64,000 nucleotides of DNA from Squalus acanthias. Taxonomy: Eukaryota. The notes beneath the pieces are model-generated. The model worked only from the letters and a program-made list of their open reading frames with translations, ran no database searches and was not told the DNA's origin. Both the position numbers and the translations under genes were made by a program. Each line of letters starts with the position of its first letter. The stretch's first letter is position 1. Positions 114-56,237 of this stretch are shown here, piece by piece. The stretch covers positions 60,638,001-60,702,000 of the forward strand of contig CM059432.1 of the NCBI GenBank assembly GCA_030390025.1, given 5' to 3'.

Positions 114-150
114 TCACAAGCTTTCGGAGTGCTGCTCCTTCGTCAGGTGA
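114..150 (-). ncRNA. Minimal type I hammerhead ribozyme motif (Penelope pLTR)
   Basis: Minus strand reads UCAC-CUGACGA-A-GGAG(cagca)CUCC-GAAA-GCUU-GUGA, with palindromic AAGCUU as helix III. Confidence 0.85.
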
Positions 151-813
151 AGTGAAGAGATGCACATAGTCACAGCATATATAGTCAGAGAACACTGCCA
201 GATGATTACAGTTAATCTTTCCAACTACCCTTTATCACACCTCGGCAGAGAGATAATCACAGCAATCAAAGGTGTGGATGGTGTCCAAACAGGTCAGTCA
301 GGAAAACATTACATCAAAGACAATGTGGCAGATGCTGGGGTCTGTATGGAAAACAAAAAACTTTTTTTGCTGGAAATCACAGCAGGTCCGGCCGCATCTG
401 TGTAGAGAGAACAAGCCAACGCCGACTCGAGTCTGGATGACTCTACGTCAGGTGGGGTTACATGTAGCGTGACATAAACCCAAGATCCTGGTTGAGGCCG
501 TCCTCATGGGTGCGGAACTTGGCTATCAGTTTCTGCTCGACGATTTTGCGTTGTCGTGTGTCTCGAAGGCCACCTTGGAGAACGCTTACCCGAAGATCGG
601 AGGCTGAATGTCCTTGACTGCTGAATGTTCCCCGACTGAGAGGGAACACTCCTGCCTGGCGATTGTTGCGCGGTGTCCGTTCATACGTTGTCGCAGTGTC
701 TGCATGGTCTCGCCGATGTACCATGCTCCGGGGCATCCTTTCCTGCAATGTATGAGGTAGACAACGTTGGCCGAGTCACATGAGTATGTACCATGTACCT
801 GGTGGGTGGTGTC

Positions 814-2161
814 ATAGATACATAGATACATAGAAGATAGGAGCAGGAGTAGGCCATCCGGCCCTTCGAGCCTGCTCCGCCATTTAATGAGATCATGGCT
901 GATCCTCCAATTCAGTATCCCGTCCCCGCCTTCTCTCCGTAACCCTTAACCCCTTTTGCCTGTAGAAATATATCTAATTCCCTCTTAAATATATTTAATG
1001 AGCTGGCGTACACTGCCCTCTGTGGCAATGAGTTCCACAGGTTCACCACCCTCTGAGTGAAGAAATTCCCCCTCATTTCTGTCCTAAATGGTTTAGCCCT
1101 TATCCTTAAATTATGTCTTCTAGTTCTGTTCTCACCCGCCAAGGGAAACATTCCTTCTGCATCTAGTCTGTCTAGACCTGTCAGAATTTTATACACTTCT
1201 ATGAGGTCCCCTCTCAATCTTCTAAACTCCAGTGTGTACATCCCTAAACTACATAGTCTCTCCTCATAGGTCAATCCCGCCATTCCTGGTATCAGCCTGG
1301 TGAATCGCCGCTGCACCCCCTCCATGGCAAGAACATCTTTCCTCAGATGAGGCGACCAAAACTGTACACAGTACTCGAGGTGTGGTCTCACCAGTGCCCT
1401 GTACAGCTGCAGCAAGGTATCCCTGTTCCTGTTTTCCAACCCTTTTGCTATGAAGGCCAGCATACTGTTTGCCTTCTTGACCGCCTGTTGCACCTGCATG
1501 CTCGCCTTCAGTGACTGGTGTACAAGAACACCCAGGTCTCTCTGTACTTCCCCCTCTCCCAATTTATTGCCATTTAAATAATAATTTGCCCTCCCGTTCC
1601 TGCACCCAAGGTGGATAACTTCGCACTTGTCCACATTATAGTGCATCTGCCATTTATCCGCCCAATCACCCAGTCTGTCCAAATCGCTCTGGAGCTTCCT
1701 GGTCTCCTCCTCTGAGCCCACCCCCCCTCCTAGTTTAGTGTCGTCTGCAAATTTGGAAATGCTGCATCCGACTCCCTGATCCAGATCATTAATGTAAATT
1801 GTGAACAGCTGGGGACCCAGGACAGATCCCTGCGGTACCCCACTTGTTACTGCCTGCCATTCAGAAAATGAGCCGTTTATTCCAACTCTCTGTTTTCTAT
1901 CTGACAGCCAGTTCTCTATCCACGTCAATACTTTCCCCTTTATCCCATGCGCTTCAATTTTCCATGCTAATCTTTTATATGGGACCTTGTCGAAGGCCTT
2001 TTGGAAGTCCAGGTACACCACATCTACTGGCTCTCCCCCATCTATTTTACCAGTTACTCCCTCAAAAAATTCCAATAGATTAGTCAAGCACGATTTACCC
2101 TTTGTAAATCCATGTTGACTCTGTCCTATCCTGTCCCCATTTGCTAAGTGCTCCGCTATTT
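814..2161 (-). mobile_element. Young 5'-truncated CR1 LINE inserted in the Penelope ORF
   Basis: Uninterrupted 391-aa RT ORF 912-2087 (YLDFQKAFDKV, GVPQGSVLGP, KFADD) and (ctatgtat)n 3' tail. tgtc occurs at both junctions; the empty site is visible in the second Penelope copy near 31100. Confidence 0.95.
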
Positions 2162-2872
2162 TGTCCTCACGTGTGATGATGGTGTCTGTGTTTATGATCT
2201 GGCATGTCTTGCAGAGATTGCCGTGGCAGGGTTGTGCGGTGTCGTGGTCGCTGTTCTCCTGAAAGCTGTGTAATCTGCTGCGAACAATGGTCTGTTTGAG
2301 GTTAGGCAGCTGTTTGAAGGCGAGTACTGGGGGCGTGGGGGTGGCTTAGCGAGGTGTTCGTTGTCATCGATGACATGTTGAAGGCTGCGAAGAACATGGC
2401 GTAGTTTCTCCGCTCTGGGGAAGTACTGGACGATGTAGGAGCCCTGCGAATACACAGGATCTGCTCAGTCGAGGAGGAACGCGATGGACACCTACAGACG
2501 CTGAAAGACGCCCTCGTAAGAATGGGATATGACGCTCGACTCGTCGATCGACAGTTCCGACGGGCCACTGCGAAAAATCGCATAGACCTCCTCAGAAGAC
2601 AAACACGGGACACAACCAACAGAGTACCCTACCGGACCTGCTGTGATTTCCAGCAAAAAAAGTTTTTTGTTTTCCATACAGACCCCAGCATCTGCCACAT
2701 TGTCTTTGATGTAATATTTTCCTGACTGACCTGTTTGGACACCATCCACACCTTTGATTGCTGTGATTATCTCTCTGCCGAGGTGTGATAAAGGGCAGTT
2801 GGAAAGATTAACTGTAATCATCTGGCAGTGTTCTCTGACTATATATGCTGTGACTATGTGCATCTCTTCACT

Positions 2873-2909
2873 TCACCTGACAAAGGAGCAGCACTCCGAA
2901 AGCTTGTGA
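2873..2909 (+). ncRNA. Hammerhead motif in inverted pLTR, core mutated (CUGACAA)
   Basis: tcac-ctgacaa-aggagcagcactcc-gaaa-gctt-gtga; G8 to A relative to the 114-150 copy. Confidence 0.75.
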
Positions 2910-4880
2910 TTTCAAATAAAGCTGTTGGACTATAACCTGGTGTTGTGCGACTTCTCACATTTGTCCACCCCAGTCCAACACCGGCATCTCCACATCATTA
3001 TTCATAAGACATACCTAACTCATCTCTTTACTCTCCCACAGGTCCATCAAGAGCCCCCCCCGCTATCCAGGAGGAAGAGCAAGATGACTCCTCAGAGGAG
3101 CTTCCAACCTCTGAGGGTGCACCGTCACCAGACATAAGCACACCCAGCACCAGCGCAGATACTTACACCTCGGTGGGTGCCACGTGAGATAGAGTAGTGT
3201 TGTCACCTGATGTCTCACGACTCACAAGTGAGCAAGAGCAGATGGTGGAGACAGGGACAGCAGTGGAGAGGCCTTGCCGGAGGGTGCAGAACAATCCCAG
3301 CTCAGCTCAGCTGCATGCAGAGGCTGAGCCTCGGGACATCCAGAAAGAGGGCGTTCCTGCAGGTGCAGCAAGAAGTGCAGGAGGCTTTGACAGCTTTTGT
3401 GACCGCGATGTCTGCAAATGTCCAGAGAATGGAGAAGTCCATCTCCAACAGGCGATGGCGACTGTAGGCTCTTCCATGGATAGGATGGCCACCTGCATGG
3501 AGCAGCTAATGCACCACTCACAGAGCACATGGTCTCTATGGAGAATAGATGGCAGAGGTTCATAGACGTCCTCTGTAGGAGGGATATTAATGTAGAAATG
3601 GATCCTCATGGCCCCACTGCTCTGCAGCAAGGTGCTCGCCCCCTCCTTGCTAGCAGGGAAGTGCGGCTGGCCCATGAGAGGGATGATGGTGAGAGGGGAT
3701 TTGCAAGTGGGGGCTCCTCTCAATGCGCTCCCACTTTGCCCCCATTGCCCTCCCCTCGGTCAGAGCTGCAGATGCCTCCTCGGATCGCGATGGCCGAGTC
3801 TGCCCCTGCACAGCCGCAGGAGGAGCAGTCTTTGGCGGGGCCATCACAAGCTCCAAAAACCAGAGGACTTCTGCCAAAAGTGTCTGTGCAGTCGCAGCAG
3901 GGAAGTGAGCAGGCTGCCTCTACCTCTGCTGAAGCCACAGGGGTAGCACCTTGTAGAAGTACGCGTAAGTGAAAGATGAAACACAAGTAGATTCACAAGG
4001 GTAGCCAGTTGGATGTTTTATTAAATGTTTCTGTAAAGTTTCCGTTACTGTGATGTCACAGATAAAAATATTTATTTTCACCAATTTCACCATCATGGAC
4101 AGACTTGTGTGCACCTATGGAAATGGCTGAATGAGTTGGAGTGAATGATCAGAAATTACGTTACCTCCAGCAATGGTGGTCAGTGTGAAAGGAATGGCTT
4201 GGTCATTGTAGGGATGCTTTATGGTGTTGCTGTAGGTTGGTGCCAACCTGGCACAGCATGTGGCAGCCATATGGGTGTAATGTGTAAAGTTAAGCAAATC
4301 TGGCCATGATAAGCCTATCCCATGTCTCCTGGGCAGCAATGTGCTCAAGTGCTGGCGGGATCTGGATCGCAGGTTCCTCCTCCTCCACCTCATCTTCTCA
4401 TTGATGCTACTACTCCTCCTCCTCTGAAGAGCCTGTGCACTCAGAGCCTTGCTCCTCATGCAGCGCTAATCCTTGCTGCGGCACTATGTTGTGCTGGGCG
4501 CAGCAGACCACGACGATTCTGGAGACCCTGCTGGTGCGTACTGAAGGGCTCCTCCAGATCTGTCAAGGCATCTGAAGCGCATTTTCAGCATGCCTATTGT
4601 CTGCTCTATGACACATCTTGTGGAAATATGGCTTTCATTTTATATCTCTCCTGAGCCTCAGTACTTCTCAAGGATGTCATGAGCCATGTCTTCAGTGAAT
4701 AGCCCTTGTCTCCAAGCAGCCAGCCGGAAAGTCTGTTCAGAGGAATGAGGAGCTGAGGGAGGGTGGACAGTCGCAGGACCAAAGAATCATGACAGCTGCC
4801 AGGGAAATTTGCGCACACATGCATGATGATCTTACTATAGTTGCAGACGAGTTGCACATTGAGGGAGTGGAAACCCTTGC

Positions 4881-7800
4881 ATAGGATTACATACATAGGA
4901 TATATGGCACAGAAACAGGCCATTCAGCCCAACCAGTCCATGCCGCGTTTATGCTCCACTTGAGCCTCCTCCCGTCTTTCTTCATCTAAATCTATCAGCG
5001 TAACCGTCTATTCCCTTCTCCCTCATATGTTTGTCCAGCCTCCCCTTAAATGCATCTGTACTATTCGCTTCAACCACTCCCTGTGGTAGCGAGTTCCACA
5101 TTCTCACCACTCTTTGGGTAAAGAAGTTTCTTCTGAATTCCCTGTTTGATTTCTTGGTGATTATCTTATATTGATGGCCTCTAGTTATGCTCTTCCCCAC
5201 AAGCCAAAACATTCTCTCTGTATCCACTCTATCAAAACCTTTGATAATTTTAAAGACCTCTATTAGGTCACCCCTCTGCCTTTTTTCAAGAGAAAAGAGA
5301 CCCAGCTTGTTCATCCTTTACTGATATGTATACCCTCGCATTTCTGGTATCATCCTTGTAAATCTTCTCTGCACACTCTCCAGTGCCTCTATATCCTTTT
5401 TATAATATGGCAACCAGAACTGCACGCAGTAGTCCAAGTGTGGTCTAACCAAGGTTCGATACATGTTTAGCATAACTTCCCTACTTTTCAATTCTATACC
5501 TCTAGAAATAAACCCTACTGCTTGTTTTTTTTTTATGGCCTTGCTAACCTGTGGCGCAACCTTTAGTGATTTGTGTATTTGTACTCTGAGATCCCTTTGT
5601 TCCTCTACCCCACCTAGACTCGCACCCTCCAGGAAATAAGTGACTTCCCTATTCTTCCTACCTAAATGTAATACCTCACATTTATCTGTGTTGAACTTCA
5701 TTTGCCAATTATTTGCCTATTCTGCAAGTTTATTAATATCCTCCTGTAATTTGTTGCAGTCCTCCTCAGTATTGACTATCCCCCCCAATTTGGTATCATC
5801 CGCAAATTTAAAAATTTTGTTTTTGATTCCCAAGTCTAAATCATTAATGTAAATTGTGAAAAGCAGTGGTCACAGCACTGATCCTTGTGGAACACCACTA
5901 CCCACCTTCTGCCACTGTGAATAGCTACTCTTTACTTCTACTCTCTGCTTTCTGTCTTGAAGCCAGCTAGCAATCATTCTGCTACTTGTCCCCTGACTCC
6001 GCATTCTCTGACCTTATTCATTAGTCTATTATAGGGTAACTTATCGAAGGCCTTTTGAAAATCTAAATAAATTACATCTACTGCATTACCATTGTCTACT
6101 CTCTCTGTTACCTCTTCAAAAAATTCAATGAGGTTGGTCAAGCAAGACTTTCCCTTTTGAAATCCATGCTGACTATTCATTATTATACTTTTCATTTCTA
6201 GATGTTCTTCTATTCTCTCTTTTAGTAAGGATTCCATTATTTTTCCTACCACCGATGTTAAGCTGACTGGTCTATAATTCCCTGGACATGTTCTATCCCC
6301 CTTCTAAAATATAGATATTACGTTAGCTATCCACCAGTCCTCTGGCACCATACCTTTTTCTAACGAATTATTAAATATGTGTAGTAATGCCTCTGCTATC
6401 TCTTCCCTTGATTCTTTTAAAATGCGTGGATGCCATCCTTCCGGACCAGGGGTTTTATCCTCTGAGTTTTTAGTTGATTTAATATATCCCCTTTTTTATT
6501 TTAAATGCACTTATCTCATTACTCATCTCATCATCCAATGTCATGCCCACCTGTTCTATCTCTCTGTTAAATACCGAAGTGAAATAATGATTTAATATTT
6601 CTGTCATCTCCCTTTCGTTACCTGTGGTATTATCCTGTCTATCCCTTAATGGCCCTATTCCCATCTCAACCTTCCTTTTTTATTGATGTGCCTGTAAAAT
6701 ATTTTGCTATTTTATTTTATGTTCCTTGATAATTTAATTTTATATTTCCTCTGTGCCTTCCTAATTGTTTTTTTGACTTCTCTCCTAATCCCTTTGTATT
6801 CTGTCTTATCATGCACTCCTCTGCTGTCTATGTACTTAATGTATGCCTCTTTCCTTACCCTCAGTTTTTCCCTTATGTCTTTATTCATCCATGTAGTCTC
6901 ATTAGTGTTTAGTTTGTTCTTTCCTTTTAGCGGAATATATTTTTCATGCACTCTGTTGAACTCCGTTTTAAATGTTTCCCATTGTCGTTCTACATCGTTG
7001 TTTGCCAATATTGTTGCCCATTTTATCTTCCCAAGTTCCATTCTCAGCCCTTCAAAATCAGCTTTTCTCCAATCTATTATCTTTCTCTATTATCATCTTA
7101 AAGCGTATTATTATTATGGTCACTATTGCCTAGATGTTCCCCTACTTTTACTTCTATCATCTGCTCTGGCTCATTCCTCATAACTAGATCCACTAGCGAA
7201 TCCTCCCTTGTTGGGCTTTTTACATATTAGGTTTGAAAAGAGTCCTGTAGACATTGTAGGAACTCCATTCCCTTATCCCCTTTACCTACCTCATCTGTCC
7301 AGTTAATATCGGGGTAGTTGAAATCCCCCATCATTATTATTCTATGTTTTTTACTCATTTCTCTAATTTGTCTGTATATTTCTTACTCTACCTCCCTTTC
7401 ACTATTAAGTGGTCTATAGACTACACCTATTAGTGTGATTGATCCTTTATTATCTTTTATCTCTATCCATATGGATTCTATTTTTGTCTTGCTGATATCT
7501 ATGTCCCTTTTTCTACTGCCATTATGTTATCCCTAATAAGTACAGCTACTCCGCATCCCCTTTTTCCCTCTCTATCTTTTCTAAATATGTTATGCCCTGC
7601 AATGTTTAATTCCCAGTCCTGATTTTTCTGTAGCCATGTCTCAGTAATCCCTACTATGTCTGGTTCCTCCTAATCCATGGTTGCCTCCAGCTCCCCTGTT
7701 TTATTACGGACACTGTGTGCAGACAGTTTAACTCATTTTTAATAGAAATTCCGTTCGCAGCCCTCCCGCGGGCGGAGGGCTGCGATTTGGAAAAATCTGC

Positions 7801-9914
7801 GCCTGGACCGGAGGGCTCCCGGGAGGCGCAGAATTCCGTTGCTGTGCCTCTTCAAACTGCCGGTGTGCAGGGCATGCGTATCCCAGGGGTGCAGGTAGTT
7901 CGCAGCATCCCTGGGATCACATGGACCATGGGGAGCCAATCAGAGCAGGGAATCTCCATTCATAGATTTGACAGGAAGACCTGTCAAATCTATGAATAGA
8001 GATCAGCCCCAAAACATAAGTAAAACTTCAAATAATTTTTTTTTTTTTAAAAATCACATTTTTAAAATGACTATAAATTACATAAATTAACTATTTTAAA
8101 CAAAAATTTTAATTTTTGAAAAAAATAATTAAAGTTTTTGACGGGGCTAAAAATAAACTTACCTTTCTTTAAAGTATTTTAAAATGATAAATCAGTGGAA
8201 AAATTTTTTTTTTTTACTTTCTTAAACTATTAGCCTGCTAAAAGCAGGCCTTGTGCCTGCTTTTCTAGGCGCAGCTGTTCCCGACTTACCTGGACTGAAG
8301 CAACTGTGAAAAAAACAGAAGTTTCTGACGTACGCGCTGCCTATCCGGCGCAGGCGTTTGTCCAGTCAAACCTTTCTGCAGAGAACGGAAGTTCTGGTTT
8401 CCAGCGCATGCGCAGTGCATGCGTAAAACCGGCACTTCCGTTGGCCCTACGGATGAGTACACACCCGTAGGGAACGGAATTTCTGGGCCTTTATGTTTAA
8501 CCATCTTTTTAGTCTCCAGTTCTATAACTCTATTTGCTCCTTTGCCGTCAATGTCCTCCCTTACTTTATTCTTTACTATGCTCACTTTTCCTGTTTTGTT
8601 TATATTTAGGCTGCTAACGTTTCTTGTAGATCCCTCCCCCCTTCTTACTAGTTTAAAGCCTTTGCCACCTCCCTATTTACCCTTTCCGCTAGGACATGGG
8701 TCCCATCCCGGTTCAGGTGGAGTCCGTCCCATCGGTACAGCTCCTTCCTGTCCCAGAACTGGTGCCAGTGTCCCATGAAAAGGAACCCCTCTTTCCCACA
8801 CCAGCCTTTTAGTCACGTGTTAATTCTCCTGATCTGTCTGCTTCTATGTCAATTTGCACGTGGCTCAGGCAATAATCCAAAGATTATTACCCTTGAGGTC
8901 CTGCTTTTTAATTTAGAGCCTAACTGCTGAAACTCTTTCAGCAGGACCTCCTCCCTGTTCCTACCTATGTCGTTTGTTCCAATATGGACCATGACAACTG
9001 AATTTACCCCCTCCCTTTCCAAGTTCCTCTCCAGCTGCCATGAGATATCCCTTACGCTAGCACCGGGTAGGCAACACACACTTCGGGATTCTCGTTCTTG
9101 ACTGCAGAGGACGCTATCTATCCCCCTAATTATAGAGTCCCCTATTACTACCACATTTCTATTCTGCTCTTCTCTTCCCCCCCCCTCGGTCAGCCTTCTG
9201 AGCCATGGTGCCTTGGTCTGCATTGTGGCTGTCCTCCCTGCAGTTTTTCTCTTTGTCCTCATAGGTAGCGAGTACTTCATACCTGGGACAGGGCCAGTGT
9301 CTGCGGGACCTCCTTCTCACCCTCTCCTAAAGCCCCGCTACCCGTCTCCCTAACAGTCACTCCCTCCCATTCCTGAACCTGTGCTTTCCTCTGGGGTGTG
9401 ACTGTATTCTGGATAAAACTGCCCAGAAATTCCTCCCCCTTCCTTATGTGTCGGAGTGTCTCCAGCTCAATGACTCTGAACCGGAGAGATTCGAGATGGA
9501 GACATCTGCTGCAGACGTGTTCGTTCGGGACAGTCTCGCTGTCCACAAACTCCCACATACTGCAGTCCAGACACACAACCTGCCCTGCCATACCTTAGAC
9601 TAGCCTTATTTTATTTATTTAATTAGTTAAAGTCTTTATTCAACGATTATTTATAGTTATATTAAATAGTTTAACTAGTTAAGCTATAAATTTAATACAG
9701 TATGTTATAGTTTCCCACTCCTAGTTTAAACCACTGTCCTAGGTTAGAGAGAAAAAAAATAATACTCACCAACCAATCACCTACCTGCTGTCCTGTGACG
9801 TCACTCTTCGTTTTTTTTTGGAAATCGTCGACGGTTCGGCCGCCGCTGGTGTCTCCAATCAGGTCAGCACTGTTTCCCCCGCTGTTTTATGCTCCGCAGT
9901 TGCTGTTGTCTCCA
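4881..9914 (-). mobile_element. Near full-length degraded CR1 LINE (ORF1 zinc-finger plus SGNH esterase, ORF2 APE-RT)
   Basis: ORF1 CLDCSMW...CSRC (9277-9591) and VVVIGDSIIRG...HIGTND (8849-9280). RT fragments 4982-7041 and an (atcctatg)-like tail at 4881. Confidence 0.92.
7740..8489. mobile_element. MITE (Harbinger-like TIRs) inserted in CR1
   Basis: Inverted termini agaaattccgttc and gaacggaatttct, GC-rich ends and AT-rich middle. Internal similarity to the element at 27344-27990. Confidence 0.7.
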
Positions 9915-13004: not shown

Positions 13005-13168
13005 TCATTCAGCATAGAAGTTGTTAAAAGTTGCATGAAACGGATATTTTGAATGATTCAGTCAACATTGCTAACTGCAGTACAGTACATTACAGTATAG
13101 CTATGTTGACTGAATAATTTAGAAAAGTTCATGCAGTCTTCAGCAGCTTTTTATTCTGTGATGAATGA
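13005..13168. repeat. Long imperfect inverted repeat (hairpin)
   Basis: attcagtcaacattgcta pairs with tagctatgttgactgaat; outer arms tcattca...tgcatgaa pair with ttcatgca...tgaatga. Confidence 0.75.
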
Positions 13169-18748: not shown

Positions 18749-20389
18749 GGCTGGAATTTTCTTTATCTTGACGGGTCCGGTGCGGGCGGTGGCCATGTCG
18801 GGTCCTGACCCCACTGCTGGCTCCATCCTGCTGTAGAAAATGAACTTACCTTAATAGGGCCTGTTAAGCCCACCCAGCGCGTAACCCTGCCCAATGAGAT
18901 GGAGCGGGTCTGGTGACATCATTCAAGACGCGTTTTCAGCCGGGATCTTTAAAAGGATCATGGCCACATAACTTTTGAAGTTGAATCTAACATAGTGCTG
19001 TCAGTGCACTACAGCTTTGGAGTGCTGCAAACACTGACAATGACTGCACAGAGGCAGAGGGCTGCACCCAGTTTCTCCGATGACTCCCTCCAGATGCTTA
19101 TGGAGGGAGTCAGAGCACGCAGGGAGGTCCTCTTCCCTTCCAATGGGCAGAAGAGACCTCCCCAGGAGACCAAGACAGCCTGGTTGCAGATTGCAGAGGA
19201 GGTCACAAGCAGGGATGTGGTCAGGAGACCTGGGTGCAGTGCTGCAAACGTTTCAATGATCTCATTCGATCAGGAAACGTTGGTACAAAGCCACACTCAA
19301 CCTCATCCTGCTGTGCCTCTCATCACATCCCCATCACTCTGCCTTCCCTTCCCTGCACATCCTTACTCACGCCAACATACCTTGTACCTCTACCCATCCC
19401 TCTCTCTCTATCTACATTATCACATCCCCATCTCACTAGCCACCCCTCACACTCACCCTCATCCTAGTGCAATCATACCAACTAACAACACACAAGGGTA
19501 GCCACTTGGGTGTTTTATCCAATGTTTATGTAAAGTTTCTGTTAATGTGGTGTCAAACATAAAAATCTTTATTTTCAACACTTTCCAGTCTTGGACAGAT
19601 TTGTGTGCACCTTTGGAAGTGGCTTAGTGAGTTACAGTGAATGGTGAGACATAACAGTACCCAACACCCCCCCCCCCCCCCCACCCCAGCAATAGTGATG
19701 AGCGTGAAAGGAATGGCTTGGTCATTGTAGGGATGCTTTATGGTGTTGGTGTGAGATGGTGCCAACCTGGCGCATCATGTGGCAGCCAGGGTGTACAGCG
19801 TAAAGTTAATTAAACCTGGCCATGATGAGCATCAGGTGATTGCGGAGAAGGTTGGCGTTGGTGCTGCTGGTGTTGGGGCTCATCGTGGTCCGATTCTGAG
19901 GACCAAGGTGAGACAGTATAAATGGCACCCATGTTGATGGAATAAACGACAGGTGAAGTACAGATGACAGAAGCATTCTGTCAATGGTGAGAGAGTTCTT
20001 CTCTCTCAGGTGAGACTAGATGGAGACTTTGCTAGAAAGACTTGCAGCCTGCAGAATCTGTGCTGGAAATGGACTGAGCAACAGCTTCTGCCTGTAGAAA
20101 GTGATCATCTGTCAGGTGGGAGCTTTTACTGTACATTTCATGCTGTTAAGTAATCAGCTGGAGCAATGGCCATGGAACTCCCGCCTCAGGTTGACAGACG
20201 TGGTTCCCGAGCTGCGTGAGTCCTGTGGCCATGCAGGGAAATTTAAAAAGTATGTCAAAAAAGGCTTTTAAGTGCCTGCTAACTACCTGATAATCATCTC
20301 AATTGGGTCCCCCGACCCGCTGTCAAAAATAACAACTTTCCCACCCAACCCACCACCAATCGCGCCCGCTAACACCGGAAAATTCCGGC
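18749..20389 (+). mobile_element. Internally deleted Harbinger element carrying a frameshifted Myb/SANT exon
   Basis: TIRs ggctggaattttc and gaaaattccggct. APSFSDDSLQML...REVLFP...WLQIAEEV / QCCKRFNDL. 19495-19830 matches 3995-4315 and 19830-20389 matches 10414-10991. Confidence 0.85.
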
Positions 20390-20544
20390 TCTTGTTTGTC
20401 TTTTTCTGCACATCACGATTTGTTTGCTCCTCTATTGTAAATTTAAAATCTCTAATTTAAAATCATAGATTGAACTTCTTTGATACAAAGAGGAAGACCT
20501 ACAGTATGGTCAGTGATCCAACTTTTTCTACCTTCCTTTTCCAG

Positions 20545-20672
20545 TTTGTCCAGACCCAAAACATGTGCCTGATGTGAGTTCTTCTGCACATAATATAAGT
20601 TCTTCAACTACAGTTGCACAAAACAAGCTGATGTCTTCTACTCAACAACATACCAAAAAAGCACTAAAACAG
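20545..20672 (+). CDS. ASXL3: ASXL3 internal coding exon (equivalent to human exon 5), 128 nt, phase 1 to phase 0
   Basis: Acceptor ctttttctaccttccttttccag and donor AG|gtaagc. Translates (x)CPDPKHVPDVSSSAHNISSSTTVAQNKLMSSTQQHTKKALKQ, matching the ASXL3 motif VQSKLVSSFQQHTKKALKQ recalled from the human protein. Confidence 0.93.
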
Positions 20673-29008: not shown

Positions 29009-29323
29009 GGGGGAAAAGTTTCGGCTGCTTTGCGCCTTCCGTTAGCGCCCTAAGAGGGCGCTAACGGGGCGCAAAGCAACTAGCGCGGCGCCACCAACGC
29101 TTCCTGCGAATTTCAGTGGGAGGTTAGCGGCAGCGGTAACCATTAGCACCCTGCGGCACTGCGCCGCCGGTGATGACGTCATCGCCGTGCGCAGCGCGCT
29201 GGCCGCAATCTTCGGTTGTGCCCCCTGACTTACCGCCAGACACTATGTCCGACGGGGTCAGGGGGGCCTACCTGCCCTGGCGAAGTTAGCGCCCCAAAGG
29301 GGCCGCGACATAATTTTTTCCCC
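29009..29323. mobile_element. CpG-rich MITE with 3-bp TSD
   Basis: cat|gggggaaaagtt...aattttttcccc|cat, with internal hairpin gttagcgccct-aag-agggcgctaac. Confidence 0.7.
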
Positions 29324-29879: not shown

Positions 29880-30060
29880 TACAAGTGCAAGTACAGAGCA
29901 ACAGACGTAATCAAATCTCATCTTGATTCCACTAACTGCAAAACCCTTCTTGAAAAGAAGAAAAGTAACAAACAAAAATGCTACACTATCCCTATCCGTG
30001 GGCTCGCTTATCTTTTCCTGGTCAAACTTCTGACCGTGCCTGAATCTAGATTTGAGATGA

Positions 30061-30159
30061 TGCGTATTTCTTCACTTCACCTGACGAAGTAGCAGCCGCT
30101 CCGAAAGCTTGTGATTTCAAATAAAACTGTTGGACTATAACCTGGTGTTGTGCGACTTC
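30061..30159 (+). mobile_element. ~100-bp Penelope terminus consisting of a hammerhead motif (30077-30114) plus 3' end
   Basis: tcac-ctgacga-agtagcagccgctcc-gaaa-gctt-gtga; 16-bp direct repeat tctagatttgagatga at 30045-30060 and 30160-30175. Confidence 0.88.
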
Positions 30160-30423
30160 TCTAGATTTGAGATGAGTGAGTTTTCCCTTGCTAGCCCAAG
30201 CTTATGTGCCCCTTTTTCCCTTTCTCTGTTTTCTCAGGAGGGCCGTCCCTCTGACTCCTTCCCTAATTAGTAGGTTTGTCAGTAAAACCAGCTACCTCTC
30301 CTCCCTCCTTAGGGCGCAGGTTTAAAGAAAGGGGGACAACACCTCCTGCTATTATCAATGAATAGCGGCCATCCAAGCTTATTGGGATGAGACAATGCAT
30401 CCTCATTGTATCAGTTTGATATA

Positions 30424-31487
30424 AATGAGAAGTCGCACAACACCAGGTTATAGTCCAACAGATTTATTTAAAATTACAAGCTTTCGGAGCTGTCGCTCCT
30501 TCTTCAGGTAGGGTAGCTGTGAGAGAATCTCCCAGAATTCACAATATAAACACAGAAAAAATGTAGTCAAATCTTTCCCTACATCAAAGACACACTAAGA
30601 GCACAGCCAAGACAATGAGATGTGTCCCAGGGGGTCCAACGTGTCAAAACACCTGCTGGCTGCATATCCTCTCCATTTGTGTTTGGTTCTTGTGTTAGTT
30701 TTTTTTTAAAAAAACCTGGAAAGACCGGCCATGATGTCAAGTCACGTTCTGTATCGTGACATGAACCCGATATCGCGATTGAGGCCATCCTCATGAGTGC
30801 GGAACTTGGCTATCAGTTTCTGCTCTATGATTTTGCGCTGTCGTGTATCCCGAAGGCCGCCTTGGAGAACGCTTACCCGCAGATCCGAGGCTGAATGCCC
30901 CTGGCTGCTGAAGTGTTCCCCGACTGGGAGGCAACCCTCCTGCCTGGCGATTGTTGCGCGGTGTCCGTTCATACGTTGTCTCAGTGTCTGCATGGTCTCG
31001 CCGATGTACCATGCTCTGGGGCATCCTTTACTGCAACGTATCAGGTAGACAACGTTGGCCGAGTCACATGAGTATGTACCATGTACCTGGTGGGTAGTGT
31101 CCTCACGTGTGATGATGGTATCTGTGTCCATGATCTGGCATGTCTTGCAGAGGTTGCCGTGGCAGGGTTGTGTGGTGTCGTGGTTGCTGTTCTCCTGAAA
31201 GATGGGTAATCTGCTGCGAACGATGGTACTTTTGAGGTTAGGCAGCTGCTTGAAGGCAAGTAGTGGAGGCGTGGGGATGGCCTTAGCAAGGTGTTCGTCG
31301 TCATCGATGACATGTTGAAGGCTGCGAAGAACATGGCGTAGTTTTTCCGCTCCGGGGAAGTACTGACGACGTAGGGTACTCTGTTGGTTGTGTCCCGTGT
31401 TCATCTTCTGAGGAGGTCTATGCGGTTTTTCGCTGTGGCCCGTCGGAACTGTCGATCGACGAGTCGAGCGTCATATCCCGTTCTTAC
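30424..31487 (-). mobile_element. 5'-truncated Penelope-like element with open GIY-YIG endonuclease region
   Basis: ORF 30742-31404 (CHGNLCKTC...NVVYLIRC...YIGET...EQKLI...GLNRD); TSD gtttgatata at 30414-30423 and 31488-31497. Confidence 0.93.
30475..30510 (-). ncRNA. Minimal hammerhead ribozyme motif
   Basis: Minus strand reads UAC-CUGAAGA-A-GGAGC(gaca)GCUCC-GAAA-GCUU-GUA. Confidence 0.85.
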
Positions 31488-31784
31488 GTTTGATATAGGC
31501 TGTGAGCTGTGACATTCCACAAACTGGCTCATCTGGGTTTAATACACATCTTCAGCACCTGTAGCCTATGGCTTTTTTTTAAATGTGCACATTTACTTTA
31601 TTTTGAAACATATTTAAACATGGTTCATTCCAAATCCTTTTTTGTAAAGAAATAAAAAATCCCAAAATGTGACAGGATGTTATGAACAACAACAGGTGGT
31701 GGTACACCTACTTAGTTACTTTTTATATCTACGTAATTTTTTATTCATATTTTATCCCCAGTGCCAGTGGTGAAAAGCATAATT

Positions 31785-45654: not shown

Positions 45655-45845
45655 CACAAAAACAAAAATTGTTGGAAATACACATTGAGTTAGTTAGCAT
45701 CTGAAAGTAAACCGGTTAATGGTTACAGTAGAAACCCTTTGTCAGAATGGCATAAACCAACTTCTCTTTCAGATGCTGACTAACCTGCTATGTATTCCAA
45801 GCATTTCCTTATTTTTATTTCAGGTGTCCCAACACTCGTGTTTTG
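45655..45845. mobile_element. Decayed inverted Penelope pLTR pair
   Basis: gttagttagcatctgaaag versus ctttcagatgctgactaac; resembles 55808-55935. Confidence 0.55.
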
Positions 45846-47550: not shown

Positions 47551-47668
47551 GCATTGAAGCAGCAACAGAAGAGGAGGATTGGTGTTTCTATGATGATGAA
47601 CAAGGCCATTCCTTGTGTCGTTCTGACACCACTAAAAGTATCAGAGGAGCACTCAGAATCACCATCTG
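47551..47668 (+). CDS. ASXL3: ASXL3 internal coding exon (equivalent to human exon 6), 118 nt, phase 0 to phase 1
   Basis: Acceptor tttttatgtaattaatag and donor TG|gtaagt. Translates [39 protein letters not shown] versus recalled human [39 protein letters not shown]. In frame with the 20545-20672 exon. Confidence 0.95.
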
Positions 47669-48619
47669 GTAAGTAGCAATTCTGAATGGACTTTAGTGTT
47701 TTAACTAATTTTCTTATGGAAATTAGCTGGAAAATAATAACTGTTTTAAAATTCAGGTCAGCGACATAAAGATGCTGATTTATCAAAGTGGTGTGGTGGC
47801 ACAGCTTGTACTAGGTTTGCACCATGAGATTTTCCACATAGCAAGTTCCCAAACTCAGTAGAGTTGCTCGGTGGAGAAAGTACATAAAACTATTTTTAAA
47901 AGATTAACAGAAAAGGATATACAAAGGCGAGTACTTTTTGTTCAAAGTAATACCCGTTATTATATAGAAACAAAGCAAACTGCCACATGCATTGTTTGTA
48001 TGTTATAAACAATCTTTGTATAACAAATGCTATTAACATGTTCACTAGTAAATGAACAGGTTGCTGCAGTTTCTAATTAGAAAATGCATTTTTTGTACAG
48101 CAGTGTCAGATTTACAGCTCTATTTTCCATTTTGGCAGCTTAAGTCTATCACTTCACAGTTGGTTCTTCTATGGAAAAAGCTCATCAAATAAGAGTGAGA
48201 TGATGATCTGGAACTATCTGTCAACACTGGCCCCAAAGCTAAGATGCCAGCCATTTGAGCTTCCATGGCAGCAGAGGCTCCATCATAGTGGGCGCCACTG
48301 TCACGTTTATGGAGCTAACCGCTCAGTCCATGTTGGACAGAATGGCCTCCATGCCCTACACAAAGCCTTGACACAAGTTGCAATCCTCTGCTCTGCGACA
48401 TTGTGCGCAAGTTTGCTGACCGACTGCCCAGTGCAGTTAGCATTTCCTGGTGTATGCCCATCAGCCCCCTTTGATAACCTGGTCCCTCAGAGTGCTCTGC
48501 AGCAGAGCTAGTAGATAAATCACTGGTTAGGCCCCAGCTGGAGTATTGTGTCCAATTCTGGGCACCACACTTTAGGAAGGATGTCAAGGCCTTAGAGAGG
48601 GTACAGAGGAGATGAACCA

Positions 48620-50340
48620 GGAGGGAGAGAGAAAACACGGAACTACAGGCCAGTTAGCCTGACATCAGTCGTCGAGAAAATGCTGGAATCCATTATTAAG
48701 GAAGTGCTAACATGGCACTTAGAAAATCATAATATGATTAGGTAGAGTCAACATGGTTTTATCCAAGCAAAATCGTGTTTGACAAATCTGTTAGAATTTT
48801 TTGAGGTTGTACCTAGCAGAATAGATGAAGGGGAACCAGTGGTTGTGGTGTATTTGGATTTCCAAAAGACATGCAATAAGGTGCCACATAAAAGATTGTT
48901 ACGCAAGGTAAGGACTCATGGGGTTGGTGGTAATCTATTAGCATGGATAAAGGATTGGTTAATGGACAGAGAACACACAGTAGGGATAAACGGGTCATTT
49001 TCAGGTTGGCAGGCTGTAACTAGTGGGGTGCTGCAAGGATCAGTGCTTGGGCCTCAGCTATTTACAATCTATATTAATGACTTGGATGAAGGGACCGAAT
49101 GTAATGTATCCAAGTTTGCTGACAATACAAAGCTAGGTGGGAAAATAAGCTGTGAGGAACATAAGAGCATAAGAAATAGGAGCAGGAGTAGGCCATTCGA
49201 CCCATCGAACCTGCTCCGCCATTCAATTAGATCATGGCTGATCTTCTACCTCAACTCCACTTTCCTGCACTATCCCCATATCCCTTGATTCCCTTAATAT
49301 CCAAAAATCTATCAATCTCTGTCTTGATATACTCAACGACTGAGCCTCCACAGCCCTCTGGGGTAGAGAATTCCAAAGATTCACAACCCTCTGAGTGAAG
49401 AAATTTCTCCTCATCTCAGTCCTAAATGGTCAACCCCTTATTCTGAGACTGTGACCCCTGGTTCGAGACTCCCCAGCCAGGGGAAACATCCATCCTACAT
49501 CTACCTTGTCAAGCCCTGTAAGAATTTTGTATGTTTCAATGAGATCACCTCTCAATCTTCTAAACTTTAGAGAATATAGGCCTAGTTTCTCCAGGAGGAC
49601 ACAAAGAGCCTGCAAAGGAATATAGACAGGTTAAGTGAGTGGGCAATAAGGTAGCAGATGGAGTATAATGTGGGGAAATGTGAGGTTATTCACTTTGGTA
49701 GGAAGAATAGAAAAACAGAATGTTTTTTAAATGGTGAGAAACTATTAAATGTTGGTGTTCAGAGAGATTTAGGTGTCCTCGTACAGGAAACACAGAAAGT
49801 TAGCATGCAGGTACAGCAAGCAATTAGGAAGGCAAATGGCATGTTGGCTTTTATTGCAAGGGGGTTGGAGTACAAGAGTAAGGAAGTTTTGCTACAATTG
49901 TACAGGGCTTTGGTGAGACCACACTTGGCGTACTGTGCACAGTTTTGGTCTCCTTATCTGAGGATGGATATACTTGCCTTGGAGGCGGTGCAATGAAGGT
50001 TCACTAGATTGATTCCTGGGATGAGAGGGTTGTCCAATGAGGAGAGATTGAGTAGATTGGGCCTATACTCTCTGGTGTTTAGAGAATGAGAGGTGATCTC
50101 ATTGAAACATGAGATTTTGAGTGAGATTGACAGGGTAGATGCTGAGAGGTTGTTTCCCCTGGCTGGAGAGTCTAAAACTAGGGGGCATAGTTTCAGGATA
50201 AGTGGTCGGCCATTTTTGACTGAGATGAGGAGGAATTTCATCACTCAGAGGGTTGTGAATTTTTAGAATTATCTACCTCAAAGGGTTATGGTTACTGAAT
50301 CATTGAGTATATTCAAGGCTGAGGTAGATAGATTTCTAGG
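48620..50340 (+). mobile_element. CR1 RT region with an antisense CR1 3' end nested at 49159-49591
   Basis: ORFs 48779-49288 and 49658-49996; host sequence agctgtgagga|ggacacaaagag is split by the insert. Confidence 0.9.
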
Positions 50341-50796
50341 GTGATCAAGGGATATGGAGAAACTTTTAAGTGCCTCCTCTTTATCTTTATCCTTTCCAAT
50401 TTCTCTGCTACCTCCTCCTTTACTGTGACATTGGCAGCATCCTCTTCAATGAAGATAGATGTAAACTACTCATTTAGTACCTCACATGCCCTCTGCCTCC
50501 ATAAGAAGATCTCCCTTTTGGTCCCTAATCGGGACTACCCTTTTACTATTTATAAGTTTATAAAAATCTTTTGGTTTCCCATTTATGTTACCCGCTAATC
50601 TATTCTCATATACTCTCTTTGCCCCCCTTTTTCAGTTCTCTCCTGTACTTTTTGTATTTAGCTTGGATCTCTATTCAATTATGAATCCAACATTTATCAT
50701 AAGCTTCCTTTGTCTGTTTCATTTTAATCTCTATATATTTAGTCATCCAGGGAGCTGTAGCTTTGAATGACCTTCCTTTCCCCCTTGTGGGAATGT

Positions 50797-53700
50797 TTTT
50801 TTTATTAGTTTATGGGATGTGGGCGTTGCTGGCAAGGCCAGCATTTATTGCCCATCCCTAATTGCCCTCAAGAAGGTGGTGGTGAGCCGACTTCTTGAAC
50901 CACTGCAGTCCGTGTGGTTAAGGTACTCCCACAGTGCTGTTAGGGAGGGAGTTCCAGGATTTTGACCCAGCGACAATGAAGGATCGGCGATACATTTCTA
51001 AGTCAGGATGGTGTGTGACTTGGAGGGGAACTTGGAGGTGGTGCTGTTCCCATGTGCCTGCTGCCCTTGTCCTAGGTGGAAGAGGTTGCGGGTTTGGGAG
51101 GTGCTGCCGAAGAAGCTTTGGCGAGTTGCTGCAGTGCATCTTGTAGATGGTACACACTGCAGCCACGGTACGCCAGTGGTGGAGGGAGTGAATGTTTAAG
51201 GTGGTGGATGGGGTGCCAATCAAGCGGGCTGCTTCGTTCTGGATGGTGTTGAGCTTCTTGAGTGTTGTTGCAGCTGCACTCATCCAGGCAAGTGGAGAGT
51301 ATTCCATCACACTCCTTACTTGTGCCTTGTAGATGGTGGAAAGGCTTTGGGGAGTCAGGAGATGAGACACTTGCCGCAGAATACCTAGCCTCTGACCTGC
51401 TCTTGTTGCCACAGTATTTATGTGGCTGGTCCAGTTAAGTTTCTGGTCAATGGTGACCCCCAGGATATTGATGGTGGGGGATTCGGTGATGGTAATACCG
51501 TTGAATGTCAAGGGGAGGTGGTTAGACTCTCGCTTGTTGGAGATAGTCATTGCCTGGCACTCCTGTGGCGCGAATGTTACCTGCCACTTATCAGCCCAAG
51601 CCTGAACGTCAGCCAGATTTTGCTGCATGCGGGCATGGACTGCTTCATTATCTGAGGAGTTGTGAATGGCGCTGAACACTGTGCAGTCATCAGCGAACAT
51701 CCCCATTTCTGACCTTATGTTGGAGAGAAGGTCATTGATGAAGCAGCTGAAGATGGTTGGGCCTAGGACACTGCCCTGAGGAACTCCTGCCGCGATGTCC
51801 TGGGGCTGTGATGATTGACCTTCAACCACCACAACCATCTTCCTTTGTGCTAGCATGACTCCAGCCAGTGGAGCGTTTTCCCCCCGATTCCCATTGACTT
51901 CAGTTTTACCAGGGCTCCTTGATGCCACACTCGGTCAAATGCTGCCTTGATGTCAAGGGCAGTCACTCTCACCTCACCTCTGAAATTCAGCTTCTTTGTC
52001 CATGTTTGGACCAAGGCTGTAATGAGGTCAGGAGCCGAGTGGTCTTGGCGGAACCCAAACTGGGCATCAGTGAGCAGGTTATTGGTGAGTAAGTGCCGCT
52101 TGATAGCACTGTCGATGACACCTTCCATCACTTTGCTGATGATTGAGAGTAGACTGATGGGGCGGTAATTGACCGGGTTGGATTTGTCCTGCTTTTTGTG
52201 GACAGCACATTCCTGGGCTGTTTTCCACATTGTCGGATACATGCCAGTGTTGTATCTGTACTGGAACAGCTTGGCTAGAGGCGTGGCTAGTTCTGGAGCA
52301 CAAGTCTTCAGCACGATAGCCGGGATGTTGTCAGGGCCCATAGCCTTTGCTTTATCCAGTGCACTCAGCCGTTTCTTGATATCACGTGGAGTGAATCGAA
52401 TTGGCTGAAGACTGGCTTCTGTGATGGTGGAGACCTCAGGAGTAGGCCGATATGGATCATCCACTTGGCACTTCTGGCTGAAGATGGTTGCAAACGCTTC
52501 ATAGAATCATAGAAAGTTACAGCATGGAAGGAGGGCATTTCGGCCCATTGTGTGCGCGCCGGCCAACAAGGAGCTATCCAGCCTAATCCCACTTCCCAAC
52601 TCTTGGTCCGTAGCCCTGCAGGTTACAGCATCCCAGGTGCACATCCAAGTACTTTTTAAATATGGTTAGGGTTTCTGTCTCTACCACCCTTTCAGACAGT
52701 GAGTTCCAGACCCCCACAACCCTCTGGGTGAAGAAATTTCCCCTCAAATCCCCTCTAAACCTTCCACCAATTACTTTAAATCTGTGCCCCCTGGTTTTTG
52801 ACCTCTCTGCTAAGGGAAATAGGACCTTTGTATCCACTTTATCTTGGCCCCTCATAATTTTATACACCTCAATAAGGTCTCCCCTCAGCCTCCTCTGTTC
52901 CAAGGAAAACAGACCCAGCCTATCCAGTCTCTCCTCATAGCTAAGATTCTCTACTCCCGGCAACATCCTTGTAAATCTCCTCTGTACCCTCTCTCGTGCA
53001 ATCACATAGTTCCTGTAATGTGGTTACCAGAACTGCACGCAGTACTCTAGCTGAGGCCTAACTAGTGTTTTATAAAGTTGAAGCATAACCCCCCTGTTCT
53101 TGTATTCTATGCCACGGCTAATAAAGGCAAGCATTCCGTATGCCGCCTTAACCACCATATCTACCTGGCCTGCTACCTTCAGGGATCTGTGGACATGCAC
53201 TCCAAGGTCCCTTTGTTCCTCTACACTACTCAGTGTCCTACCATTTAATGTGTATTCCCTTGCCTTGTTAGCCCTCCCCAAATGCATTACCTCACACTTC
53301 TCCGGATTGAATTCCATTTGCCAGTGTTCTGCCCACCTGACCAATTTATTGGTATCTTCCTGCAGTCTACAGCTTCCTTTTTCAGTATCAACCACACAGC
53401 CGATTTTAGTATCATCTGCAAACTTCTTAATCATACCCCCTGTATTCAAGTCTAGATCATTGATAGATACCACAAAAAGCAAGGGACCTAGTACTGAGCC
53501 CTGCAGAACCCCACTGGAAACAGCCTTCCAGTCACAAAAACACCCATCAACCATTACCCTCTGCTTCCTGTCTCCGAGCCAGTTTTGAATCCAACTTGAC
53601 ACTTTGCCCTGGATCCCATGGGCTTTTAACTTCGTAACCAGTCTGCCATGTGGAACCTTATCAAAAGCCGTGTTAAAGTCCATATACACTACATCAAACG

Positions 53701-54760
53701 CACTACCCTCATCTACCCTCCTTGTTACCTCCTCAAAAAATTCAATCAAGTTTGTCAGACACGACCTTCCCTTAACAAATCCGTGCTGACTATCCTTGAT
53801 TAATCCGTGTCTTTCTAAATGAAGATTTCTCCTGTCCTTTAGAATTCTTTCCAATAATTTTCCCACCACCGAGGTTAGGCTGACTGGCTTCAGCCTTGTC
53901 TTTTGCACTCACATGCTGGGCTCTACCATCGTTGAGGATGGGGATATTCATGGAGCCTCCTCCTCCCGTTAGTTGTTTAATGGTCCACCACCATTCACGA
54001 CTGGATGTGGCAAGACTGCAGAGCTTTGATCTGATCTGTTGATTGTGGGATCGCTTAGCCCTGTCTCTAGAATGCTGCTTCCGCTTTTTAGCATGCATGT
54101 AGTCCTGTGTTGCAGCTTCCCCAGGTTGGCACCTCCTTTTTAGGTACGCCTGGTGCTGCTCCTGGCATGCTCTTCTACACTCCATATTGAACCAGGGTTG
54201 GTCCCCTGGCTTGATGGTAATGGTAGAGTGAGGGACATGCCGGGCCATGAGGTTACAGATTGTGGTGGAATACAATCCTGCTGCTGCTGATAGCCCACAG
54301 CGCCTCATGGATGCCCAGTTTTGAGCTGCTAGGTCTGTTCTGAATCTATCCCATTTAGCACGGTGGTAGTGCCACACAACACGATGGAGGGTATCCTCGG
54401 TGTGAAGACGGGACTTCGTCTCCACAATGACTGTGCGGTGGTCACTGCTACCAATGCCGTCATGGACAGATGCATCTGCGACAGGTAGATTGGTGAGGAC
54501 GAGGTCAAGTAGGTTTTTCCCTCGTGTTGGTTCTCTCACCACCTGTCGCAGGCCCAAACTAGCAGTTATGTCCTTCAGGACCCGGCCAGCTCGGTCAGTA
54601 GTGGTGCTACTGAGCCACTCTTAGTGATGGACATTGAAGTCCTCCACCCAGAGTGCATTCTGTGCCTTTGCTACTCTCAGTGCTTCTTCCAAGTGGTGCT
54701 CAACATGGAGGAGTACTGATTCATCAGCTGAGGGAGGGCGGTAGGTGGTAATCAGCAGGA
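50797..54760 (-). mobile_element. Second CR1-group LINE family (APE-RT ORF2), largely open, split by CR1
   Basis: ORFs 53790-54557 (LDLVLTN, SDH), 51850-52464 (NYRPISLL, QFGFR, ALDIKAAFDRV) and 50918-51928 (GVPQGSVLGP, MFADD); A-rich tail. Confidence 0.92.
52502..53886 (-). mobile_element. 5'-truncated CR1 nested in the above LINE
   Basis: RT ORFs 53024-53908 and 52583-53005; attctatg tail; TSD gcttca at 52496-52501 and 53887-53892. Confidence 0.93.
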
Positions 54761-55102
54761 TTGTGTCTAGTCTGTACCCAAACTATCTCCTCTTTGAAGG
54801 CTTCCCATTGCTCATTTACTGTTTTACCTGTCAGTCTTTGATTTTAATCCACCTGGGCCAGATCTCTTTTCAACTCACTGAAATTAGCCCTCCACATGTT
54901 GAATATTTTCACATTTGATTTTTCCTTGTCCTTTTCCATAACTACTCTAAACCTAATGATATTGTGATCACTATTTCCCAAATGCTCTCCCACGTGAAAC
55001 ATGCCCCAATTCATTCCCAGAACTAGATCCAGCACTGCTTCCTTCCTCGTTAGGCTGGAAACATACTGATCAAAAAAGTTCTCTTGTACACATTTCAGGA
55101 AT

Positions 55103-55458
55103 TCAAAATCTTGAAGGTTTTTGATAGAGTAAATAAGGGGAAACTGTTTCCAGTGGCTGAAGGGTCGTTAACCAGAGGATTTAAGGTAATTGGCAAAAGA
55201 AGCAGAGGCAAGATGACGAAAAAAAATTTACGTAGCGAGTTGTTATGATCTGGAATGTATTGCCTGAAAGGGTGGTGGAAGCAGATTCAATAATAACTTT
55301 CAAAAGGGAATTGGATAAATACTTGAAGTGGAAACAATTTGCAGGGCTATGGGGAAAGAGCAGAGGAGTGGGATTAATTGCATAGCTCTTTCAAAGAGCT
55401 GGAACAAGCACGATGGGCCGAATGGCCTCCTTCTGTGCTGTATCATTTTATGATTCTT
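55103..55458 (+). mobile_element. CR1 3' end
   Basis: Matches 25590-25910 and 26044-26080. Confidence 0.85.
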
Positions 55459-55807
55459 TCTCCACCTCTGGTGTTCTGTCACCTGTGGCATCCTATCTTC
55501 CTGCCCTAGCTTGTGCACACTTGTGGTCAGTGATTCACCATGTGAAGACCTCTCCTCCAACGTAGCCTCTAATGTGTGCGTGGTGCCAGTAGCTGAGTTG
55601 GCGCATGCAAGGGTAAGATTGAGCGACGGTGCATCTTCAGCAATGCTGGCCTCCTCTTCCTGAAATGGCAGAGGTATCGCCACATTTTCAGCACCTGAAA
55701 TGAAAGACGGGGATAATGTAGATGTAATCAAGTTATTTAACTTGAATCCACAATCTTTTGATTCTGAGGCAAAAATGATAACACTGAACCAAGGCTGACA
55801 CCTAACA

Positions 55808-56237
55808 CAAAAATACTGCGGATGCTGGAAATCTGAAATAAAAACAGAAAATGCTGGATACTCAGCAGGTCAGGCAGCATCTGTGGAGAGAGAAACAGAG
55901 TTAACGTTTCAGGTCGATGACCCTTCGTCAGAACTAGAAAAAGCTGGAGAGGGAACAGGTTTTTAAGCAAGTGTAGGGGCAGGGATTGCCATTTACACTT
56001 CATCTAGAGCCATCTTTTGTTTCTTAACTTGTCCCATTACCATCTCCTTTTGCCTTGCACCATCATCCCTTTTGTCTCTTAATCTCTCCTGCCTTCCATC
56101 CTATCACAGGCCTTCCCTTTTGTTCTTTCCTCCCCTCCCCCCTTTCCCTGCCCCGACACTTGCTTAAAATCCTGTTCTATCTCCAGCTTTTTCCAGTTCT
56201 GACGAAGGATCATCGACTTGAAACGTTAACTCTGTTT
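55808..56237. mobile_element. Non-coding Penelope pLTR insertion (second family) with two oppositely oriented hammerhead motifs
   Basis: Hammerheads at 55899-55935 (-) and 56195-56231 (+): agtt-ctgacga-stem-gaaa-cgtt-aact. ~95-bp inverted repeat; TSD ctgacacctaaca at 55795-55807 and 56238-56250. Confidence 0.88.

Follow-up and report, generated by a model that had tools for sequence, protein, structure and literature searches.

Minimal type I hammerhead ribozymes are known from the pseudo-long terminal repeats (pLTRs) of Penelope-like elements (PLEs). They combine the type I core with an extra base between positions 9 and 10.1, a short helix I and a palindromic 15.2-16.2 segment, and have no helix III stem (Cervera and De la Pena 2014, PMC4209133). 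Such motifs showed no activity as monomers and low activity as dimers (PMC4209133). The Poseidon element PAc of the green anole also has a minimal hammerhead, at the junction of pLTR and open reading frame (ORF); it cuts only with the element's protein, and no RNA sequencing reads end at the site (PMC11167929). We analysed a stretch of 64,000 nucleotides of the Squalus acanthias genome (contig CM059432.1, positions 60,638,001 to 60,702,000 of the forward strand; hereafter the window) for which six such motifs had been predicted inside introns of the gene ASXL3. Most probably, these motifs are minimal type I hammerheads in the pLTRs of two Penelope-like families, residing in four truncated insertions that are likely idle passengers in ASXL3.

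Direct reading confirmed all six motifs at the predicted places and on the predicted strands, including the G8A change at 2873:

114-150, minus strand: family-A minimal hammerhead, antisense to ASXL3; intact core, helix II of 4 bp, predicted cut after 118
2873-2909, plus strand: family-A minimal hammerhead, sense; core killed by G8A (CpG decay)
30077-30114, plus strand: family-A minimal hammerhead, sense; intact core, U.C mismatch at helix II pair 2, predicted cut after 30110
30475-30510, minus strand: family-A minimal hammerhead, antisense; intact core, helix I UAC/GUA, helix II of 5 bp
55899-55935, minus strand: family-B minimal hammerhead, antisense; intact core, helix II of 5 bp
56195-56231, plus strand: family-B minimal hammerhead, sense; intact core, helix II with G.U, G.U and then A.C at pair 3, predicted cut after 56227

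The fold is that of a type I hammerhead, with helix I (3-4 bp), CUGANGA, an extra A, helix II (4-5 bp), GAAA, two bases, UU and again helix I. The core boxes CUGANGA, GAAA and UH stand in type I order and are intact in five of the six motifs, the exception being 2873. The extra unpaired base between 9 and 10.1 is an A throughout and is invariant in the family-A alignment described below. The palindrome at 15.2-16.2, without a helix III stem, reads AGCU in four motifs and ACGU in two. The palindromic hexamers AAGCUU and AACGUU previously assigned to helix III are present, with these 4-mers as the part that would pair in a dimer; their outer letters we take to be core positions A14 and H17.

A scan of the window that takes structure into account and tolerates one core change returned these six motifs and no others above threshold, and five shuffled windows gave 0-1 matches. 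A loose core pattern matched six times against 0.56 expected, a number reached by 0 of 100 shuffles; its matches are the five intact-core motifs and a stemless chance match at 56315, the G8A copy being unmatchable by this pattern. Rfam, in contrast, reported no hammerhead in the window at the gathering threshold, and none of its seven matches at E<=10 was one. The structure-aware route thus recovers all six, whereas the silence of the Rfam models is expected because the motif lacks a helix III stem. The six are all genuine but not independent, since 114 and 2873 lie on the arms of one insertion, and 55899 and 56195 on those of another. Exact-core patterns matched 53,202 times (family A) and 23,176 times (family B) across the genome, with 2 and 7 matches for the reversed-pattern controls. 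This amounts to at least 76,378 copies, one per 49 kb or 1.3 per 64-kb window. The window contains five exact-pattern matches from four insertions, a modest excess over 1.3 in a window chosen for it, and its density is ordinary. A local cluster of six motifs was considered and rejected, given the four insertions and the genome mean of 1.3 matches per 64 kb.

The motifs share with the described PLE hammerheads the type I core, the extra base at 9/10.1, the short helix I, the palindromic 15.2-16.2 and the absence of a helix III stem, and they likewise occur mostly as solo truncated copies, as opposite-strand pairs 100-700 bp apart and as tandems about 3 kb apart (PMC4209133). The helix I of family A, UCAC/GUGA, recurs in the lamprey row of that paper. 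Family B differs in that the pair closing helix II is G.U or A-U rather than G-C: the G10.1-C11.1 closing pair is found in 31 of 33 family-A rows, while family B has A-U in 23 and G.U in 16 of 44 copies. Judged by sequence, the motifs appear to have every testable feature of the PLE hammerheads apart from this family-B closing pair. The copy number of at least 76,378 exact cores compares with about 4,000 in coelacanth and about 9,000 in Xenopus (PMC4209133), figures obtained by different search methods. Sharks are not named in the searched parts of that paper, from which one supplement file was missing, and in a literature search combining shark, Penelope and hammerhead ribozyme the sole 'shark' was the hammerhead shark. 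What is new is the extension of a described motif to two shark families; the kind itself is known (Cervera and De la Pena 2014).

The motifs are carried by four insertions, each flanked by a target duplication (12, 16, 10 and 13 bp). In addition, the window holds the relic of an older hammerhead:

63-2995, minus strand: insertion 1, a 5'-truncated family-A copy whose 5' end bears a second, inverted and truncated copy
61-391 and 2632-2962: inverted arms of insertion 1, 331 bp with 3 differences, one of them the G8A of the sense arm
463-813 and 2162-2439: endonuclease pieces of insertion 1, split by a later long interspersed nuclear element (LINE; ~828-2151)
51-62 and 2996-3007: target duplication of insertion 1, 12 bp
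30061-30159, plus strand: insertion 2, a solo 99-bp family-A pLTR end with a 16-bp target duplication (30045-30060 and 30160-30175)
30424-31487, minus strand: insertion 3, a 5'-truncated family-A copy of a second subfamily, with an endonuclease frame (30745-31470) and the 3' pLTR
30414-30423 and 31488-31497: target duplication of insertion 3, 10 bp
55808-56237: insertion 4, an inverted pair of family-B pLTR ends with arms at 55891-55985 and 56145-56239 (95 bp, 7 differences)
55795-55807 and 56238-56250: target duplication of insertion 4, 13 bp
415-455, minus strand: decayed family-B-like hammerhead relic inside a family-A pLTR; A9 and the GAAA box are lost

The Penelope origin of the motif-bearing ends, proposed earlier, is confirmed by the reverse transcriptase (RT), the GIY-YIG-type domain and the pLTR setting. 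In both families, motifs read directly show an RT followed by a C-terminal GIY-YIG-type domain, a CX4CxxC linker and CCHH. The Pfam RVT_1 model matches the family-A frame (E 8e-9); Pfam gave no match for the family-B fragment or the endonuclease frames, and the endonuclease was recognised by motif instead. The proteins of the two families are 33% identical over 405 residues. On another contig (locus L230, minus strand, 1639-5000) an intact family-A tandem has two identical hammerheads 3,046 bp apart, which flank an open stop-to-stop frame of 919 codons whose first Met lies about 90 nt downstream of the motif. Such a tandem is likely the natural setting for a hammerhead dimer, and family A is probably still active.

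Neptune/Nematis-type endonuclease-containing (EN+) elements show the same RT, a CX2-5CxxC linker and GIY-YIG with CCHH, as well as the same partial tandems, inverted 5'-truncated copy and short tail (PMC8557442). The shark has two lineages at 33% identity, which are Neptune-type by motifs, not by tree. PAc Poseidon likewise places a minimal hammerhead at the pLTR-ORF junction, but belongs to a different clade, lacks the linker finger and starts its ORF in stem II, unlike the shark frame (PMC11167929). PAc cuts and extends both target strands (PMC11167929), which fits the many inverted pairs in the shark introns sampled below (42, against 74 solo copies).

Several further observations concern these families. 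The relic at 415-455 and its downstream tract lie about 300 nt upstream of the live family-A motif, and a family-B-like relic in a family-A repeat recurs in other copies (L191:4607-4657, L024, L025 and L035), with shorter matches in L030, L031, L051, L072 and L132. This is a chimeric repeat in which an old ribozyme decayed and a new one was kept. At 57172-57304 lies an older family-B end that has decayed and in which no hammerhead core can be recognised. About 40-44 kb before the window, an ASXL3 intron contains a 4-kb near-perfect inverted pair (L072:5500-9530) with two open 544-codon RT-endonuclease arms, which would be a very young insertion; within the pre-mRNA it would give about 2 kb of double-stranded RNA. 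We also searched for head-to-tail short hammerhead units of the retrozyme type; there are no same-strand, same-family neighbours in the window, and the pairs are inverted.

How far the fold is conserved was examined in an alignment of 43 of the 59 family-A copies, which had been found by their tail and not by their core and gave 33 distinct rows. Base pairing is present in 95.6% of its cells, compared with 17-53% in slid controls; the pairing of 95.6% is raised by leaving out truncated and misparsed copies and one arm of some identical pairs. For family B, 44 of 49 copies were tabulated by script, a method other than the pair count used for family A. One of the nine family-A pairs has changed on both sides (helix I: C-G 18, U-A 12, U-G 3) and five have changed on one side via G-U. 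The number of doubly changed pairs is not above that in shuffles (414 of 500); the number of cells is. The compensated helix I pair may reflect a single event, the rows being related. The covariation first reported for helix I therefore stands in part: CAC/GUG versus UAC/GUA is a compensated change within family A, but AGUU/AACU belongs to family B and speaks for a fold conserved between lineages rather than for covariation among copies. The assertion that helix II always stays paired does not hold, given the U.C mismatch at pair 2 of 30077 and the A.C at pair 3 of 56195. Covariation is thus genuine but thin, with one compensated pair in helix I and with helix II varying through G-U alone.

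In the 96 copies found by their tail and bearing no more than one core change, every base occurs at N7, and only U and C occur at H17 (never G). The remaining core positions deviate in 4 of 54 family-A and 12 of 42 family-B copies, mostly as singletons or CpG decay. Genome-wide counts on one backbone were 1,573 for the harmless C7U, 601 for a C-to-U in the loop, 409 for the core-killing G8A and 366 for a helix-II-breaking G-to-A. These counts seem to read as amplified function-preserving variants above a floor of post-insertion decay, with no sign that G8A is either purged or favoured. Mutational strand bias could also lie behind the CpG counts, both low counts being G-to-A, and cannot be separated from this effect. 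The fold would accordingly be under selection in replicating lineages, as far as these sequence comparisons suggest.

In the living element, two motifs would pair through a helix III formed by the 4-bp palindrome (AGCU or ACGU) and would exchange their helix I strands; each core of the dimer would then cut the other copy after CUU or GUU. Dimer cutting would likely process the element's own multi-unit transcript and would probably need the element's protein, as suggested by PMC4209133 and PMC11167929. Selection would act on the replicating lineages, which would account for the compensated pair and for the freedom at N7 and H17, and after insertion copies would decay like other DNA. Of the earlier statement that minimal type I hammerheads in Penelope pLTRs presumably act as dimers, the motif and its setting are supported and the dimer action is likely. 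A different role is conceivable: the motif may persist for its structure, which would serve in protein binding, in starting translation or in priming the element, with no cleavage in these families. Catalytic mutants were without effect on the insertion of the anole element in vitro (PMC11167929), the position of the first Met in the intact frame would suit such a role, and the active dimer is never the predicted lowest-energy fold. We consider it unlikely, since the positions that vary are those that a hammerhead tolerates (N7, and H17 without G), which fits selection on catalysis. Such a role would apply to the living element, and the ASXL3 copies could still be idle.

That the motifs lie inside ASXL3 introns, with the gene on the plus strand, was confirmed by exons within and flanking the window. 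Two coding exons fall into it:

20545-20672, plus strand: ASXL3 coding exon, residues ~120-162, placed by protein mapping
47551-47669, plus strand: ASXL3 coding exon, residues ~163-202, sharply delimited within longer contigs from probable RNA runs

With the first of these (42 codons) as the query, eight proteins were found among nine candidates, all named ASXL3 and all from sharks or rays; two further paralogues lie on other contigs. When two of these ASXL3 proteins are mapped on the window and 200 kb of adjacent DNA, the gene runs on the plus strand from about -48 kb to about +180 kb. As the exons are on the plus strand and flanking exons lie outside the window, all six motifs are intronic and the plus-strand copies are sense. 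The sequencing runs consulted consist of assembled contigs only, which are guessed to be RNA and cannot show ends, strand or level. In three of the four, the exon at 47551-47669 is sharply bordered within records of 685, 1,423 and 1,129 letters, which fits spliced ASXL3 mRNA if the guess about the runs is right.

The original prediction further held that 30077 and 56195, as sense copies with intact cores, are transcribed as part of ASXL3 pre-mRNA and could cut it. Their cores are indeed intact, yet each has a private-looking mismatch in helix II, that of 30077 being seen in 1 of 59 family-A copies. The predicted energy of the active dimer is +9.5 kcal/mol for 56195, compared with -8.5 for its antisense twin, and -7.9 kcal/mol for 30077, compared with -16.9 for an undamaged relative. 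A heterodimer of the two is ruled out on sequence (AGCU versus ACGU, and UCAC/GUGA versus AGUU/AACU), and no second same-family sense motif was found in either ASXL3 intron. Moreover, all three sense copies are predicted to form duplexes with their antisense partners (-639 kcal/mol for 2873, -127 for 30077 and -159 for 56195). In the case of 2873 and 56195, transcription reaches the complementary arm before the motif itself. Cleavage of ASXL3 pre-mRNA by 30077 or 56195 is thus not supported, in view of the mismatches, the lack of a matching partner, the predicted masking and the absence of sense depletion elsewhere (see below). The three sense copies would seldom if ever cut ASXL3 pre-mRNA, because they are damaged, have no matching partner in the intron and are predicted to be masked. 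The runs are silent on RNA at 30077: its unique flanks are uncovered in four of four, from animals that may lack the insertion, and none of the contig pieces listed bridges a cut site with 31 letters on each side. A depth step near 30100 was rejected as cleavage evidence, since it follows the identity filter at a private variant.

We then turned to a larger sample of 1.78 Mb between same-strand exons of six genes, namely ASXL3 and five large laminin-G genes; genes nested inside were not checked, and one block measured 150 kb instead of 200 kb. It contains 158 copies, 66 of which are structurally perfect. Of these, 29 are sense (p 0.39), or about 16 perfect sense copies per Mb of intron, which indicates no depletion. 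Among the 42 inverted pairs, five have a perfect arm in antisense only and three in sense only, which gives no support to selection for inactivation of sense copies. Allowing one helix II mismatch led to the same answer (33 of 73 sense; pairs 5 versus 5).

Several results do weigh against complete idleness. The complement of 30077 (90% over 83 nt) is transcribed about 310-400 nt later. At polymerase speeds this distance corresponds to seconds, and 30077 would be exposed briefly until its masking strand has been transcribed. Damage is seen in all three sense copies of the window and in none of the three antisense cores, as would fit selection for inactivation. RNA of the element family is very abundant in the probable RNA runs, and hence partners in trans may exist. 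Finally, solo copies are skewed, with 24 of 74 in sense (p 0.0034; family A 5 of 20, family B 19 of 54), whereas LINE pieces show no strand preference in 1.63 Mb of these introns (206:192, 54:67 and 78:76; in the tally made for this comparison 24 of the 158 tail matches were left out as poorly anchored). Something in the sense strand of Penelope ends may thus be selected against. The solo test is small and one of several run; the 12 of 25 listed papers that were looked at gave nothing on point about orientation bias of Penelope-like elements in introns.

Taken together, these results would be expected if sense copies did cleave host pre-mRNA, though at a low rate, in trans with element RNA or protein, and were mildly harmful, so that selection thins or inactivates them. 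Xenopus retrozymes are under-represented in introns (bioRxiv 10.64898/2026.07.22.740005), which would agree with such a cost. We nevertheless judge this to be quite unlikely. Sense copies make up a similar share of the perfect (9 of 24), the mutated (7 of 25) and the truncated or unclassified solos (8 of 25) (Fisher p 0.42 on an earlier set of 64 copies), and therefore the skew is not tied to the ribozyme. The inverted pairs, moreover, are symmetric. The sense strand also has AATAAA a few bases past the cut in family A and a pyrimidine tract with CAG in family B, and this polyadenylation hexamer or 3' splice-site-like tract could explain the antisense skew; an insertion preference is another possible source. 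Furthermore, introns cut by a hammerhead are still spliced in cells, unlike those cut by the fast hepatitis delta virus (HDV) ribozyme (Dye 2006 and Fong 2009, as reported in PMC2995048). An extended form would have the roughly 16 intact sense hammerheads per Mb of shark intron cut in trans by Penelope RNA, which is abundant, or by the protein. Nascent transcripts would then bear a load throughout the genome, and selection would answer it by the two-to-one thinning of solo sense copies, by mutation and by favouring insertions that fold back and mask the motif. This is more speculative still, and we regard it as improbable.

In family B generally, for example at 55880-55905 on the minus strand, the predicted cut splits UUAAC, and a pyrimidine tract followed by CAG lies about 20 nt on. 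We take this to be a branch-point-like and 3' splice-site-like arrangement. Penelope repeats are known to hold introns.

A self-cleaving motif that sits in an intron in sense to its gene is known from the CPEB3 ribozyme. Conserved amniote intronic hammerheads, in RECK and other genes, share this arrangement (PMC6155905), and this precedent is what speaks for a copy having been domesticated to regulate ASXL3 splicing or level. The amniote motifs, however, are few, conserved and fold as monomers, whereas the shark copies are young, number tens of thousands and are minimal and damaged. The stable helix III that allows the monomer fold is absent in all six motifs. In addition, the insertions have intact target duplications, the damaged copies are the sense ones, and motif density is ordinary, with 13 motifs across the whole of ASXL3 (7 sense, 6 antisense). 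Domestication is therefore extremely improbable, and idle passengers remain the reading that we prefer.

As it stands, the finding is of minor importance, adding two shark families to those in which the motif has been described. With at least 76,378 exact-core copies and intact full-length elements, a genome of this kind is well suited to asking if Penelope hammerheads cut in vivo and if their catalysis is under selection. The two-to-one antisense skew of solo intronic copies, absent for LINEs, is a lead that merits following across the whole genome, and host cleavage, if true, would be an unrecognised cost on very long genes.

Among the other features of the window, the frames 18953-19498 (plus strand) and 57992-58459 (minus strand) have weak Myb/SANT-like Pfam matches (E 6e-4 and 0.06) and are presumably fragments of Harbinger-type DNA transposons. 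Short inverted repeats, perfect or nearly so, lie at 7952-8003, 13031-13136 and 29023-29081; their microRNA-family scores are below threshold, and they are likely small repeats.

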